Below, in pieces: positions 1-4,079 of a stretch of DNA of 4,079 nucleotides (position 1 is the first letter of the stretch; each line of letters starts with the position of its first letter). The notes beneath the pieces are model-generated. The model searched no databases, was not told where the DNA came from, and worked only from the letters and a program-made list of their open reading frames with translations. This DNA is from a virus (lineage: Duplodnaviria; Heunggongvirae; Uroviricota; Caudoviricetes), in IMG/VR virus record IMGVR_UViG_2657244940_000015; one strand, given 5' to 3'. The translations under genes were made by a program, and so were the position numbers.

Positions 1-2010
1 GATGGCGGTGGTCAGCAGGCGGCTGTTCTCATCGCTTCCACTGGTCAGGCGCAGACTGAAGCGCACGCCCTTCACCACCCTCGGCGTGTCCCATTTCGCC
101 AGCGCCAGATACTGGCTGTCAGCTGCGCTCACCTCCACCGTGAGGTGCTGTACTGCCGGTGGGATAACGCTGTTCAGGGTGCCTGACTGCGGCTCAAAGC
201 GGGCTCCGTTATCCACAATGGCTTCTTTTTCCGGTACGTGCTGCACCGCCGTGATGGCAAAGGTGCCGTCCGTGTTTTCCCGGATGGAGACACAGCGGAA
301 CAGGCGACGGCGCAGTGACGGCAGGGAGAGTCCCCACACCCCGTATGTCTCCACACCATCAGGCAGGGTACTGACCTGTATCCGGTCCGGCGCGGGGTGT
401 GCGGTGATGTCCACACTCACCGGCTTACCGCTGCCGTTAATCAGGTTCACCGCCGATGTACCTGTCTCCGGCAGGGTAACCTCACGGTCCAGCGTCAGGG
501 TGCGGGTGGCAGCATCAATGGACAGGATACGTCCGCCGGTCATAGTCCCGGCATAGTCGTTATCACAGATTTCAATAATGTCACCCGGTGTGTGACGCAG
601 CCCCTGTGACCCGAGCGTGAAGTCCACCGTCTGCGTTTCCAGCAGTTCGGTCTTTATCACCCACAGACCTGCACGGTGAGCCTGACCGCGGCTGGTACAG
701 CCAAACGCATCCATCTTCAGCAGATTGCGTCCGTAGCGCAGTATGGCTTCCGGGTCTTCCACCAGTTCCGTGTAGGTCTGCCAGCCGTTCTGCGGGTCGG
801 TGTAATTCACCTCCACCGCCGTGTGCCGGTCCTTCAGGGCACTGAAGCTGTAGCGGAACCCCACGCCGTTATCATCCACCACCACATCGCTGTTGGTGTA
901 CGGCCACACCACATCCGACGGGCGGTCCTGAACGAACGTCAGCGTCTGGCCGTTCCATACCGGCATACAGCGCATCGCCGAGCAGAAATCACTGAGAACG
1001 TCCCACGCCTTACGCTGTTGTGCCAGGTACGCATTAAAGGTCATCCGCGGCTCTGTGCCCCCGAAACCATCCGGGACCGTCTGGTCGCAGTACTGCCCGA
1101 TGGCATACAGCGCCCACTTGTCCACATCCGCCGCCCCCAGACGTTTTCCCATGCCGTAGCGCGGGTGAGTCAGCATGTCCCACAGACACCAGGCCGGATT
1201 GTTACTGTATGCCGGTTTCAGACTGCCGTCCCAGATACCACTGTACGTGCGTTTTTCCGGGTCATAGTTTGACGGCACCTGGATGATGCGACCGCGGATA
1301 TGGTAGTTCACCGTCATCTGCTGGCCGCCGAACTGCTCCGCATCCACCTGCAGCCCCACAATGGCCGTGTTCGGGTAGCACTGTTTCACATCGATAATTT
1401 CGGTGTATGACGACCAGAGCGTCTTATTCTGCAGCTGGTCCGTGGTGCTGTCCGCCGTCTCCCTGACCATCCGGATGTTAAAAGGACGGGGAGGCAGATT
1501 ATCCAGAATCACCGACGCCAGAAACTGCGAGGTGGTCTTGCCGTTAATGGTGACATCCTTTTCCGTCATCCATTTACCACCACGCTCAAGCTGAATCAGC
1601 AGGCGGACAGACGTCGGGTTACGGTCACCCTTTGACGTGGTCTGCACCAGTGACTGCACCCCGAAGGTCACCCGCAGGCGGTCAATGTTCGCGGACGTAA
1701 TGGTGCGCGTCACCGGTTTTGCCTTCGTCACTTCCACGCCCAGTACAGTTTCAGCTCCGGAGGACTCAAAGCCTTCCGGTGGTGTCTGCTCCTGCTCCCC
1801 GGCGCGCCAGACCGCCGTCACACCGTGTATCACGGGATTACCGTCCGTGTCCGTCAGCGGGGTTTTGTTCACCAGGATACTCTGCAGTCCCTTCACCGGG
1901 CCTTCTATCGGTCCCTCACCAACCGCATCAATCACGCTCATCATCTGCGTGGATTTGAGATTATCCTTCGCCTCACGAGGCGTGTGTGCCTTACCGCCAC
2001 CTTTTCCCAT
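1..2010 (-). CDS. J: Tail tip host-specificity protein J (lambda gpJ homolog), N-terminal 670 codons; 3' end lies beyond the left edge of the window
   Basis: Minus-strand ATG at 2010-2008 preceded by a purine-rich SD (GGGGAAGG). Translation begins MGKGGGKAHTPREAKDNLKSTQ..., closely matching the lambda gpJ N-terminus as I recall it. I scanned every codon in this frame from 2010 to 1 and found no stop (670 sense codons). It is absent from the supplied ORF track only because it has no in-window stop. Confidence 0.9.
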   Translation of the reverse strand, partial: MGKGGGKAHTPREAKDNLKSTQMMSVIDAVGEGPIEGPVKGLQSILVNKTPLTDTDGNPVIHGVTAVWRAGEQEQTPPEGFESSGAETVLGVEVTKAKPVTRTITSANIDRLRVTFGVQSLVQTTSKGDRNPTSVRLLIQLERGGKWMTEKDVTINGKTTSQFLASVILDNLPPRPFNIRMVRETADSTTDQLQNKTLWSSYTEIIDVKQCYPNTAIVGLQVDAEQFGGQQMTVNYHIRGRIIQVPSNYDPEKRTYSGIWDGSLKPAYSNNPAWCLWDMLTHPRYGMGKRLGAADVDKWALYAIGQYCDQTVPDGFGGTEPRMTFNAYLAQQRKAWDVLSDFCSAMRCMPVWNGQTLTFVQDRPSDVVWPYTNSDVVVDDNGVGFRYSFSALKDRHTAVEVNYTDPQNGWQTYTELVEDPEAILRYGRNLLKMDAFGCTSRGQAHRAGLWVIKTELLETQTVDFTLGSQGLRHTPGDIIEICDNDYAGTMTGGRILSIDAATRTLTLDREVTLPETGTSAVNLINGSGKPVSVDITAHPAPDRIQVSTLPDGVETYGVWGLSLPSLRRRLFRCVSIRENTDGTFAITAVQHVPEKEAIVDNGARFEPQSGTLNSVIPPAVQHLTVEVSAADSQYLALAKWDTPRVVKGVRFSLRLTSGSDENSRLLTTAI

Positions 2011-2148: not shown

Positions 2149-2213
2149 CATGTCCACCGATAATCCTGTTGGTAAAAACCGGTAATGGCATAAAAATTCT
2201 GAATATCTTCACA

Positions 2214-2243
2214 TTTTCACAAACTGACTGTGGCGCGTATAAT
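2214..2243 (+). promoter_or_regulatory. Sigma70-like promoter candidate (TTTTCA -N18- TATAAT), oriented antisense to the tail genes
   Basis: Perfect -10 hexamer TATAAT at 2238-2243 and a -35-like TTTTCA at 2214-2219 with 18-bp spacing, in an AT-rich stretch (about 2160-2300). Predicted TSS near 2250. Confidence 0.3.
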
Positions 2244-2310
2244 TTCGCTGCGTTAGTGTTTTTTTGCCCGAGTAACAAAAACAACTCCTTAACTCTAATC
2301 TTTGTCTGTC

Positions 2311-2345
2311 CCCGCAGCTCCGCGATCACTGCGGGATTTTTTTAT
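2311..2345 (+). terminator. Plus-strand rho-independent terminator candidate ending 6 bp from the I stop codon
   Basis: Stem CCCGCAG (2311-2317) / CTGCGGG (2329-2335) with an 11-nt loop, followed by A + TTTTTTT + ATT (2336-2346). On the minus strand the hairpin is followed by GACAGACAAAG, so it is plus-strand specific. Confidence 0.4.
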
Positions 2346-2350
2346 TCTTT

Positions 2351-3031
2351 TTACCCCTGCCGCCCGATAACCACGACCTTTCCGCACCCGCCTTCATCAC
2401 GGGTACTGATGTCCTGGGATATACGGCGGGAGCCAACCAGCATTTCCCCGTAAGGCACCGGCATCGGGTTACCCTGGGCAATCATGTTGTCCAGTGACGA
2501 AAAATACGTGTTCTGTCTGCCGTTATCCGTTGCGCGGTAATCCGGTGTTTTTGCCTTCGGGGCCAGCATCTGGGCCACACCACCCAGAATCATGCTGGCC
2601 CCCAGTGAAAACAGCATCGTGGTGGCAGAAAAACCGCCGGCACTCAGGGCTGTACCCCATAACGCCATCGAGGCACCGGCAGTGAGGAAAGAGCCCACGA
2701 TGGCTGCCGCCCCCAGCACAATCTGCAGTCCACCCTTTCCGGCCCCGGCCAGTCGCGGCACAATATGGATAACCGTTCCCTCACTCAGTGGTTCGTGAAG
2801 GCGGGCATACACCGCCTCCGGTGCCGTATCCTCACCGGCAATGCGTATCTGGTACCAGCCTTCGTTCATCTGACGGCGAAAGCCCGGCACCTGCATCGAC
2901 AGTGCGCGGATGGCTTCCGCTGCCGTGTTCACATACAGGCTGAGGCGGCGGCCAAATCGTTGTAAATCCCCGTGAAGGCAGATGCGTGCCAGTGGCGGTG
3001 ACGCCAGACAGAATGCGTTCGTCGTTGCCAT
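2351..3031 (-). CDS. I: Tail tip assembly protein I (lambda gpI homolog), 226 aa
   Basis: ORF from the track (MATTNAFCLASPPLARICLHGDLQRFGRRL...QGNPMPVPYGEMLVGSRRISQ...) resembles lambda gpI in length (223 aa in lambda) and sequence, including the hydrophobic Gly/Ala-rich central segment. SD-like GGGAGAGG lies about 11 nt upstream of the ATG. The start sits 103 bp inside the K reading frame, as in lambda. Confidence 0.88.
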   Translation of the reverse strand: MATTNAFCLASPPLARICLHGDLQRFGRRLSLYVNTAAEAIRALSMQVPGFRRQMNEGWYQIRIAGEDTAPEAVYARLHEPLSEGTVIHIVPRLAGAGKGGLQIVLGAAAIVGSFLTAGASMALWGTALSAGGFSATTMLFSLGASMILGGVAQMLAPKAKTPDYRATDNGRQNTYFSSLDNMIAQGNPMPVPYGEMLVGSRRISQDISTRDEGGCGKVVVIGRQG

Positions 3032-3918
3032 TTTTCGGAATACCTCTCCCGTTTACTCAGTTGTTCAGGCAGATGGTGAAGCAGTTCACCGTTGCCGCAG
3101 TAAATGGCGGCATGATTAGCCACCGATGCGCCGAAGCAGCACAGCAGGATATCGCCCGGCAGTGCAGAGGACAGGGGCACCCGGTAAAAGCCCGTTTCCT
3201 CCATATTGTCCAGGTAAAGGTTCTGACCGTTGCACCACCAGTCATCCTCACGGTGAAAATCCGGCATATCAATGCCTGCCAGATGGTATGCATCCCGGAA
3301 CAGCGTGTAACAGTCCGTCACCCCGTGCGCAAAGCGCCGTCCTGTCAGATGTGGCACACAGCGGAATTTGTGAATGTCACCCCGGCTGACCAGCCACCAG
3401 GGCAGTGCGCTTTTTATCTGCAGCCGCCGGTCAGCCTCGCTCAGCCAGGGCAGACCACCGGGATGACTGTGGACCAGTGCCACAATCTCCCCCTGCATCT
3501 CTGCCCGCAGCCAGTCTTCCGGTGCGATACGAAAATACGCCTCAGGCTCTGCAGAGATATTCACGCACGGCTGGTACTGGTTGCCCTCCGGCGTGCTTAT
3601 CACGAAGCCGCACGACTCCGCAGGCGCACACCGCCGGGCATGCGCCAGAATCGCTGATTCAGTCTGTGTCATGGGATTTACTGCGAAAGACTGCACGGCC
3701 CCATCAACGCGGGTGATGGCGTTAACCGGGCAGACCGTTGCGCAGGGTGCATCTTCACAGTGGTGACAGAGCTGCGGCGCAGATTCTTTTTCATTGAGCA
3801 TCACTCTCAGGCGCGGCATTGATTGCAGGCCGTGCTGGCGATGCGTCTCTGAACAGGCAGCCTCACAAGTGTGGCAGCCGATACAGAGCGTGGAGTCAGC
3901 AATTACAAAACGATTCAC
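2929..3918 (-). CDS. K: Chimeric ORF: N-terminal 82 aa HycB/HyfA-type 4Fe-4S ferredoxin fragment fused in frame to a full-length tail tip assembly protein K homolog (JAB/MPN + NlpC/P60). A K-only product could start at the internal ATG at 3672 (247 aa)
   Basis: 329-aa ORF with GTG start at 3918 and SD GAGGA 7 nt upstream. Residues 1-76 carry CIGCHTCEAAC (CxxCxxCxxxC) and CHHCEDAPCATVCP (CxxCxxxxCxxxCP). From residue 83 (MTQTESAILAHARRCAPAESCGF...) the protein matches lambda gpK, including the JAMM motif HSHPGGLPWLSEAD (HxHx7SxxD) and the NlpC/P60-type Cys in GVTDCYTLF. The internal ATG at 3672 has no obvious SD. Confidence 0.8.
   Translation of the reverse strand: MNRFVIADSTLCIGCHTCEAACSETHRQHGLQSMPRLRVMLNEKESAPQLCHHCEDAPCATVCPVNAITRVDGAVQSFAVNPMTQTESAILAHARRCAPAESCGFVISTPEGNQYQPCVNISAEPEAYFRIAPEDWLRAEMQGEIVALVHSHPGGLPWLSEADRRLQIKSALPWWLVSRGDIHKFRCVPHLTGRRFAHGVTDCYTLFRDAYHLAGIDMPDFHREDDWWCNGQNLYLDNMEETGFYRVPLSSALPGDILLCCFGASVANHAAIYCGNGELLHHLPEQLSKRERYSEKWQRRTHSVWRHRHWHASAFTGIYNDLAAASACM
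3673..3918 (-). pseudogene. hycB: 5' fragment (about 77-82 codons) of a formate-hydrogenlyase-type Fe-S subunit gene (HycB-like), truncated after the second Cys motif and fused to phage K
   Basis: MNRFVIADSTLCIGCHTCEAACSETHRQHGLQSMPRLRVMLNEKESAPQLCHHCEDAPCATVCPVNAITRVDGAVQ matches my recollection of the E. coli HycB N-terminus nearly residue for residue. Similarity ends at ...GAVQ, where an intact HycB would continue with further Cys motifs. The gene symbol is from memory and was not verified by search. Confidence 0.5.
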
Positions 3919-3990
3919 CAGGCATTCCTCAGGTGATTGTCATTTTTGACGAAAACATGCCGATGAAATGTCATTTTCGACACTCATCGA
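3919..3990 (-). promoter_or_regulatory. 5' leader of the chimeric ORF: SD plus two tandem palindromic operator-like sites (TGTCATTTTYGAC x2, 31 bp apart)
   Basis: SD GAGGA is the reverse complement of plus 3926-3930. Direct repeat of 13-mers at 3938-3950 (TGTCATTTTTGAC) and 3969-3981 (TGTCATTTTCGAC), each an inverted repeat GTC-N6-GAC (second copy TGTC-N6-GACA), spaced about three helical turns apart. Confidence 0.35.
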
Positions 3991-4079
3991 CACGCCCATC
4001 CCCAAACAGGCGTAACGCCTGCAAAACGGGCAAAGCCTCAGCTCATGCTGCCGGGCTTTGTCCCTTTACCAGTTGGCTT

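Follow-up and report, generated by a model that had tools for sequence, protein, structure and literature searches.

The question raised by this locus is whether the non-coding spacer between the tail genes I and J of a lambda-like prophage carries a small RNA gene read against the tail operon and, if so, which gene it is and how its product might act. The window, by which we mean the whole stretch of 4,079 nucleotides that was analysed, is a lambda-like prophage tail region with its tail genes read on the minus strand, and is laid out as follows.

Positions 1–2010, minus strand: 5' part of the tail tip gene J (NCBIfam NF049904 lambda_TipJ, 1489 bits), downstream of the spacer in the operon
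Positions 2011–2350: non-coding I–J spacer, 340 bp
Positions 2351–3031, minus strand: tail assembly gene I (Pfam PF06805 Lambda_tail_I, E = 2.8e-16), stop codon at 2351–2353, convergent with the sRNA gene
Positions 2929–3672, minus strand: gene K, with JAB and NlpC/P60 domains

The RefSeq version of gene I is shorter (582 nt). In phage lambda the I–J spacer measures just 60 nt and is devoid of the sRNA module. By BLAST, the whole spacer of the window is present in 1649 of 5426 complete E. coli genomes, and a 164-bp module (2187–2350) recurs in 147 phage records at 71–95% identity; the right-hand ~160 bp of the spacer correspond exactly to the promoter-to-terminator module and are conserved independently of the rest. 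At the other end of the window (3673–4079), phage homology stops 17 nt before the K start codon, at about 3689, and from 3691 onward the DNA is core E. coli sequence found at 99% identity in many strains, comprising the first 76 codons of hycB, the hycA–hycB spacer and the end of hycA. The junction of K with hycB gives an in-frame HycB'–K ORF of 329 aa (2929–3918, minus strand) and is absent from all 5426 complete E. coli genomes; it reflects either a deletion by which the prophage was reduced to a remnant or a join made in assembly.

The signals that delimit a transcription unit on the plus strand of the spacer are the following.

Positions 2197–2217, plus strand: A/T-rich upstream block TTCTGAATATCTTCACATTTT, at about −53 to −33 from a start at 2250, UP-element-like or a regulator site
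Positions 2216–2221, plus strand: −35 hexamer TTCACA, 16 nt upstream of the −10, part of an 11/12 scan match
Positions 2238–2243, plus strand: −10 hexamer TATAAT, from the consensus scan
Positions 2311–2343, plus strand: intrinsic terminator (stem 2311–2317/2329–2335, loop 2318–2328, A2336, U7 at 2337–2343), from scan and folding

With 11 of 12 consensus positions matched, TTCACA-N16-TATAAT (2216–2243, plus strand) was the top promoter of the window in the consensus scan, which returned four promoter-like sites as compared to 1.8 ± 1.3 in shuffled sequence. An initial sequence-only reading of this DNA had proposed the promoter TTTTCA-N18-TATAAT (2214–2243); the scan recovered this register as well, at 10/12, with the TTCACA register scoring higher. 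The terminator proposed in the same reading, a 7-bp GC stem at 2311–2335 followed by a T7 run, was borne out by both scan and folding, in which C2311–G2317 pairs with C2329–G2335 to form a GC-rich stem of 7 bp closed by an 11-nt loop; the scan also reports an alternative 6-bp register of this hairpin. The terminator is specific to the plus strand, as had been claimed, the minus strand lacking a T-run after the hairpin. The transcript does end close to the stop codon of gene I, the U-tract terminating 7 nt from it and not the 6 bp originally given. Likewise, the assertion that the intervening sequence has no ORF longer than three codons holds for ATG starts, as there is no plus-strand ATG in 2244–2346, and fails for GTG and TTG starts: GTG2256 opens a frame of 65 codons and TTG2302 one of 22 codons, both of which read through the terminator. 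Neither frame is preceded by a Shine-Dalgarno sequence, and the reading frames are not kept among alleles.

The element at 2197–2343 (plus strand) is an allele of pasB, an already described gene, so that the original call was correct without being a discovery. PasB (pathogenicity-associated sRNA B, E2348CN_0006) is one of five "pathogenicity-associated" prophage sRNAs found through RIL-seq in enteropathogenic E. coli (EPEC) O127:H6 E2348/69 (Pearl Mizrahi et al. 2021, Sci Adv, PMC8550237), where it maps to NC_011601.1 1466343..1466261 (minus strand, 83 nt, prophage PP6) and was detected on northern blots with the probe AATCCCGCAGTGATCGCGGAGCT (PMC8550237, Table S6). Two segments of the window correspond directly to this RNA.

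Positions 2265–2343, plus strand: region homologous to mature PasB, 79 nt here vs. 83 nt in E2348/69, from alignment to NC_011601.1 1466343..1466261
Positions 2316–2338, plus strand: exact reverse complement of the PasB northern probe AATCCCGCAGTGATCGCGGAGCT, 23/23, a single occurrence in the window

In the alignment of PasB with 2265–2343, 75 of 83 columns are identical, with four substitutions and one 4-nt deletion in the single-stranded stretch upstream of the terminator, whereas the terminator itself is identical and the promoter region upstream of PasB is nearly so. The context is also the same: in E2348/69, PasB lies between the tail assembly gene (ending at 1466255) and gpJ (starting at 1466496) and ends 6 nt from the stop codon of I, so that both alleles occupy the I–J spacer, converge on I and end 6–7 nt from its stop. 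Cumulatively, the probe match, the alignment and the matching context identify the window element as a pasB allele. It carries A at PasB position 27, like the variant named PasB-2. The two loci differ more widely between the promoter and J, the segment being 176 bp with a 14-bp hairpin in the window and ~75 bp with a CAGGCAYC hairpin in E2348/69. A search of the whole window against Rfam 15 (E-value mode) gave no match at E <= 1, which says nothing against this identity since PasB is not in Rfam.

What is published on PasB describes a typical Hfq-associated sRNA. Its size on northern blots agrees with RNA-seq coverage and its stability depends on Hfq (PMC8550237), the log2 fold change in an hfq mutant being −6.8 under the activating and −2.4 under the non-activating condition (PMC8550237). 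It takes part in 37 RIL-seq interactions, with chimeras found mostly in the non-activating condition (258 vs. 1820), and it holds the second position in these chimeras (PMC8550237). The target motifs of Fig. S5 in that study are those of PasA, PasD1 and PasD2, with no common target motif reported for PasB (PMC8550237). A later distribution survey obtained 1,158 PasB hits and noted that PasB is often the sole Pas gene of a genome, that it occurs in extraintestinal isolates too, and that it is embedded in a phage structural gene operon; the seed was proposed to be the single-stranded stretch directly upstream of the terminator (Zhu, Shabalina and Storz 2026, bioRxiv 10.64898/2026.05.13.724894).

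A second set of known sRNAs belongs to the same locus. EcOnc22, EcOnc23 and EcOnc24 were described from the prophages Sp15, Sp14 and Sp11 of EHEC O157:H7 Sakai (Tree et al. 2014, Mol Cell, PMC4104026, Table S2) as plus-strand RNAs of ~85 nt on northern blots that are destabilised without Hfq, all detected with the probe GGGAGAGAACGATGAAGATTAACTGATGAGTTA (PMC4104026). The I–J spacer of Sp15 (NC_002695.2 2902691–2902930) holds the same module with a different body, and the 23-nt exact target of GGGAGAGAACGATGAAGATTAACTGATGAGTTA lies inside it. As the published EcOnc22 coordinates (peak 2902714–2902774) are off the expected NC_002695.2 position, having probably been given for an older release of the record, we placed EcOnc22 by its probe sequence. 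From the position of this target in the Sp15 spacer we conclude that PasB and EcOnc22–24 are alleles of one locus. In the window the target of GGGAGAGAACGATGAAGATTAACTGATGAGTTA is absent, with a match only around TAATCTT and the start of the stem, which makes the window a homologous locus bearing an allele different from EcOnc22–24. The two groups share position and orientation in the I–J spacer, the upstream block, the position of the −10, the AAUCUU motif, the terminator stem CCCGCAG/CUGCGGG with U7, a similar size (~85 nt) and Hfq dependence. In contrast, the EcOnc body allele is GAUGCCUGAAAAAUAACUCCAUAACGUUAAUCUUCAUCGUUCUCU, identity over the module is ~72–74%, and the EcOnc promoter is weaker, with AATAAT as the −10 and no −35 match at or above the scan threshold. 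In the literature searched the link between PasB and EcOnc22–24 is not stated; the PasB papers do not mention EcOnc22–24, and the note field for PasB in Table S6 is empty. With northern, RNA-seq, Hfq-CRAC and RIL-seq support at these homologous loci (PMC8550237, Table S6; PMC4104026, Table S2), the claim of a small non-coding RNA gene in the spacer, convergent with I and equipped with a promoter and a terminator of its own, stands.

The length of the RNA is a separate matter. A transcript of ~95 nt starting at 2250 had been predicted, and is not supported in that form: published PasB is 83 nt long, and its ends map to 2265–2343, which is 79 nt here on account of the 4-nt deletion. The TTCACA-N16-TATAAT promoter nevertheless predicts a start near 2250, as opposed to the published 5' end at 2265. 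The intervening sequence is as follows.

Positions 2250–2264, plus strand: possible 5' leader GCGUUAGUGUUUUUU (conserved GCGUUA and U-run), transcribed only if the start is at ~2250

Two explanations can be offered, namely trimming of a longer primary transcript at the U-run and use of a weak second promoter. In the first case, the TATAAT promoter would give a primary transcript of 94 nt that is later trimmed. Alternatively, 2250–2264 belongs to a weak second promoter with the TAnnnT at 2254–2259 and GTGGCG 18 nt upstream; this GTGGCG-N18-TAGTGT, with a start near 2266, fits both the published 5' end and the conserved TAnnnT, while matching the consensus at just ~6 of 12 positions. Across alleles, predicted lengths are 90–103 nt from the strong-promoter start and 76–87 nt from the published 5' end. 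On northern blots, 83 nt was found for the PasB allele (predicted 98 or 83) and ~85 nt for the EcOnc22 allele (predicted 91 or 79). When the 94–98 nt primary transcripts of the window and E2348/69 alleles were folded, the 5' U-run was predicted to fold onto the A-rich run (2250–2285), at about −18 to −19 kcal/mol overall, a pairing that would mask the putative distal-face motif for Hfq as long as the leader is present. Folds of 20 alleles did not predict this pairing in most of the others.

For the survey of the family, 19 phage and prophage spacers were aligned first, and further copies were then collected with the conserved block TTCTGAANNTCTTCACATTT, the IMG/VR pattern collection comprising at least 120 loci. 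Among the matches listed, at least 139 modules carry the CTGCGGG–T-run terminator, 58 of them distinct; these 58, together with the divergent copy L069, form the 59 aligned sequences of the conservation profile. Of 137 collected copies of the module (among the matches listed), 136 run straight into the antisense of the I C-terminus. The upstream block TTCTGAATATCTTCACATTTT is unchanged across the 19 BLAST-derived spacers; as it later served as the search pattern, its invariance in the IMG/VR set is by construction. The sequence-only reading had staked its promoter on conservation in related spacers, and the −10 indeed occupies a fixed column in 59 of 59 aligned sequences, as TATAAT (31), AATAAT (17), TATCAT (8), GATAAT (1), GATAAA (1) or GAAAAT (1) among the matches listed. 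The −35 is TTCACA in only 38 of the 59 (again among the matches listed), the remainder having TTCTGT, TCCGGC or TTTGCA. What is kept across the alignment, as far as the matches listed go, is GCGTTA with the T-run just past the −10, the A-rich run, UCC, AAUCUU and the terminator; the remaining RNA body varies, falling into at least eight allele classes among the matches listed, and alleles are distinguished by indels of 1, 2, 4 and 5 nt. The terminator stem is unchanged in 10 of 10 diverse alleles, and the divergent copy L069 has the compensatory stem CCCACAG/CTGTGGG. In the comparison of homologous spacers that had been suggested, no covariation was found for any internal structure, and the terminator stem was invariant apart from the compensatory pair in L069. 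In line with this, folding of the alleles (as a consensus of 10 diverse ones and singly for 20) revealed no shared structure beyond the terminator.

A pattern scan with one genome per species returned 42 matches, nearly all of them chance hits in unrelated phyla; true copies came only from Escherichia albertii and three short, probably contaminant contigs. The latter, assigned to Asaia platycodi (L024, 546 bp), Parendozoicomonas haliclonae (L032, 460 bp) and Streptomyces flavalbus (L039, 3408 bp), contain an E. coli-type I–J spacer with pasB, and their modules are most likely E. coli contamination in these assemblies. In L024 and L110 the pasB module is broken after TTCACAAACTGA, between the −35 and the −10, by unrelated DNA that begins with ACCGCCCCGGGAATCCTGGAGACTAAACTCCCTGAG and encodes a transposase-like start, which is probably an IS insertion inactivating the promoter. 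Some IMG/VR phage contigs hold two upstream blocks in one spacer, 179 nt apart in L064 (9949–10147), L119 (4151–4349) and L139 (7423–7621), and 471 nt apart in L105 (4543–5033). The extra tandem unit has another body, with ACCUCCUUA or AACUCCUUA, and another terminator (CUCCCG...CGGGAG with a T-run); its −10 is TATAAT in L105, and none is recognisable in L064, L119 and L139.

The comparison of alleles bears directly on the objection that there is no RNA gene here at all, and that a chance promoter and terminator, or a small protein gene on either strand, has been mistaken for one. Mechanical ORFs do span the spacer (1986–2453 on the plus strand and 1991–2329 on the minus strand), and the records of phages ASU11, PhiR12_1 and 1720a-02 annotate hypothetical CDSs over it. 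However, the longest sense-strand ORF changes its start, frame and length (7–45 codons) between alleles, and terminates within the module in 79 of 139 copies, both counts being taken among the matches listed; alleles differ by indels of 1, 2, 4 and 5 nt; there is no plus-strand ATG; and northern blots show an RNA of 83–85 nt for two homologous alleles. We regard this objection as extremely improbable. A protein-coding reading of either strand was rejected on the non-conserved frames seen in the family comparison. Among the annotations concerned, two "hypothetical protein" CDSs lie on the tail-operon strand over the pasB module (L017, 523–621; L019, 551–703), and a third (L004, 305–505) covers the spacer segment between the module and J and extends over the start of J as well as the module's first bases; L004, L017 and L019 are from ASU11, PhiR12_1 and 1720a-02, respectively. 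Since frames are not conserved among alleles, these CDSs are probably mis-annotations.

Within the RNA body of the window allele, three motifs stand out.

Positions 2274–2285, plus strand: A-rich block AACAAAAACAAC, four A-R-N triplets, a candidate Hfq distal-face contact
Positions 2285–2291, plus strand: CUCCUUA, anti-Shine-Dalgarno-like, a candidate seed
Positions 2297–2302, plus strand: AAUCUU, the most conserved internal motif, within the single-stranded PasB seed region proposed by Zhu et al.

A-rich runs of the ARN type are retained in all allele classes among the matches listed despite their differing sequence. CUCCUUA has the sequence of the 3'-terminal 7 nt of E. coli 16S rRNA. In the 59 aligned sequences, as far as the matches listed go, its UCC is at least 90% conserved and the flanking A residues at least 98%, the allele variants being UUCCUUA, CUCCCUG and CUCCAUA; AUCUU is likewise conserved to at least 98% (59 aligned, among the matches listed). 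The window allele lacks 4 nt directly after AAUCUU (AAUCUU[CAUU]UGUCUG), a deletion that falls inside the region proposed by Zhu et al. as the seed.

This deletion invites the suspicion that pasB is here a decaying relic, namely that the prophage is truncated and that the loss of 4 nt beside AAUCUU has disabled the pairing region, leaving no functional product. The phage DNA does give way to hycB 17 nt before the K start, and the deletion takes the C of an otherwise conserved AAUCUUC, thereby shortening the proposed seed. The promoter (11/12) and the terminator are nonetheless intact, and the allele is not confined to this DNA: the AAUCUU–UGUCUG junction recurs in at least three exact copies of the window allele, the window included, in at least eight close variants, and in a different body class (L068, L129, L138 and L159), all among the matches listed, and tail operons that are otherwise complete, such as that of strain G1/2, carry the window allele as well. 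Such recurrence marks it as an established variant and not as a private lesion, and we consider decay very unlikely.

Considering the anatomy of the RNA, which is that of a trans-acting, Hfq-dependent sRNA (a long U-tail behind a terminator hairpin, an A-R-N run and a C/U-rich single-stranded stretch with an anti-Shine-Dalgarno-like core), and the matching behaviour of the homologues, we have good confidence that it works by base-pairing in trans with Hfq, probably at ribosome-binding sites. In the mechanism that we propose, the sigma-70 promoter, with its −10 at 2238–2243, the TTCACA −35 of this allele and the A/T-rich block upstream, would fire from the prophage independently of late transcription, and the transcript of the sRNA gene would end at 2343, at the terminator with the 7-bp stem and U7. 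The stable product would be 2265–2343 (79 nt), either starting there or trimmed from a 94-nt precursor at the U-run. Hfq would be bound by the U-tail and the terminator hairpin, and probably also by the A-R-N run at 2274–2285, leaving the C/U-rich single-stranded region 2285–2310 (CUCCUUA ... AAUCUU ... UGUCUGU) to pair with other RNAs in trans; occlusion of the ribosome-binding site would be the most likely regulatory outcome. Existence as an RNA, dependence on Hfq and numerous RIL-seq partners are established for the homologues only. Expression of the window allele, its seed nucleotides and its regulatory outcome are what we infer from the present analysis.

The position of the gene suggests another role. 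The RNA is perfectly complementary to the late tail mRNA over the I–J spacer and is transcribed towards I, so that its main function could be in cis, through cleavage of the tail transcript, through collision with late transcription, or through limitation of J in lysogens together with a hairpin upstream of J. The gene lies wholly, and in antisense, within the transcribed spacer, with its position fixed in 136 of 137 copies among the matches listed. In both E2348/69 and Sakai Sp15, the stretch from the sRNA promoter to the J start contains a sense-strand terminator-like hairpin, and a comparable one exists in the 60-nt I–J spacer of lambda, where there is no sRNA module. The strong variation of the RNA body around a constant promoter and terminator, however, fits changing trans targets better than a cis function indifferent to sequence; PasB behaves in RIL-seq as a typical trans-acting Hfq sRNA (second position in chimeras, 37 partners); and the complementarity misses the J ribosome-binding site, ~240–340 nt away, the J start being at least 255 nt from the RNA and the overlap being limited to non-coding spacer. 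Pairing of the RNA body with the translation starts of K, I and J in the window was not better than that of shuffled RNA (z = +1.8, 0.0 and +1.0, respectively). A main role in cis, by any of these routes, thus appears quite unlikely to us. The antisense, 3'-UTR or transcriptional-interference modes initially envisaged are not supported as stated, the data instead describing an Hfq-stabilised RNA with 37 RIL-seq partners and trans-acting behaviour.

The remainder of the spacer, from the J start to the pasB promoter (2011–2186), has features of its own. It contains a 14-bp hairpin (2113–2144) flanked on either side by T-rich runs, which gives it the look of a plus-strand terminator, as well as a second hairpin (2083–2106) and a promoter-like site at 2042–2071 (9/12); from its sequence, it could conceivably give rise to another plus-strand RNA, of ~70 nt. 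Among 46 copies the segment hardly varies, and it occurs alongside several different pasB body alleles. Other phages have a shorter segment directly before J; its CAGGCAYC hairpin, in which a compensatory C-G/T-A change is seen, has the form of a sense-strand terminator.

A broader reading joins these observations: the I–J spacer of lambdoid phages could be a dedicated hypervariable sRNA cassette whose body is swapped by recombination, combined with gating of J in cis. PasB, EcOnc22–24 and at least six more body alleles would share one frame, made up of the upstream block, the −10, the GCGUUA–U-run leader, the CUCCUUA-like and AAUCUU motifs and the terminator, with two tandem cassettes in some phages, and the hairpin upstream of J would gate expression of this host-range protein from prophage or late transcription. 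Taken as a whole, this remains speculative and, in our judgement, unlikely. The reading that we prefer is that the window holds a pasB allele as a stand-alone sRNA gene in the I–J spacer, transcribed against the tail operon and yielding an Hfq-bound, trans-pairing RNA, and we hold it with considerable confidence.

Reading the sequence by itself had thus recovered a bona fide, experimentally supported sRNA gene, and the case may serve as a positive control; genome annotations leave the pasB locus blank or overlay it with spurious "hypothetical protein" CDSs. PasB is among the more abundant Hfq-bound prophage sRNAs in EPEC. The value added here is modest and consists in the link between PasB and EcOnc22–24, based on shared locus and frame, and in the survey of alleles. 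An 83-nt BLAST query greatly understates the variability of the locus, with 147 phage records here vs. 24 reported. The conserved CUCCUUA-like and AAUCUU motifs may aid the study of PasB; its classification as a known gene is unchanged.

Among known systems, the element can be compared with the "anti-sRNAs" AgvB and AsxR of Stx-type prophages (Rfam RF02702 and RF02703), which are likewise prophage-encoded, Hfq-bound and short, have A-R-N motifs, keep their terminator-proximal part conserved while the pairing part varies, and are moron-like insertions convergent to phage genes. They differ in locus, lying downstream of PR' and Q (the moron site) as opposed to the tail operon, and in size (51–60 nt), and have no sequence similarity to the window element; neither RF02702 nor RF02703 matched anywhere in the window at E <= 1. 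Furthermore, AgvB and AsxR are anti-sRNAs, whereas PasB is not known to sponge another sRNA. The element also resembles phage morons, which are, in the description attributed to Juhala et al. 2000 by PMC4104026, independent transcription units inserted between phage genes: it has its own promoter and terminator, is absent from lambda and is expected to be expressed from the prophage. It departs from them in that the cargo of pasB is an RNA and not a protein, and in that its orientation opposes that of the flanking operon.
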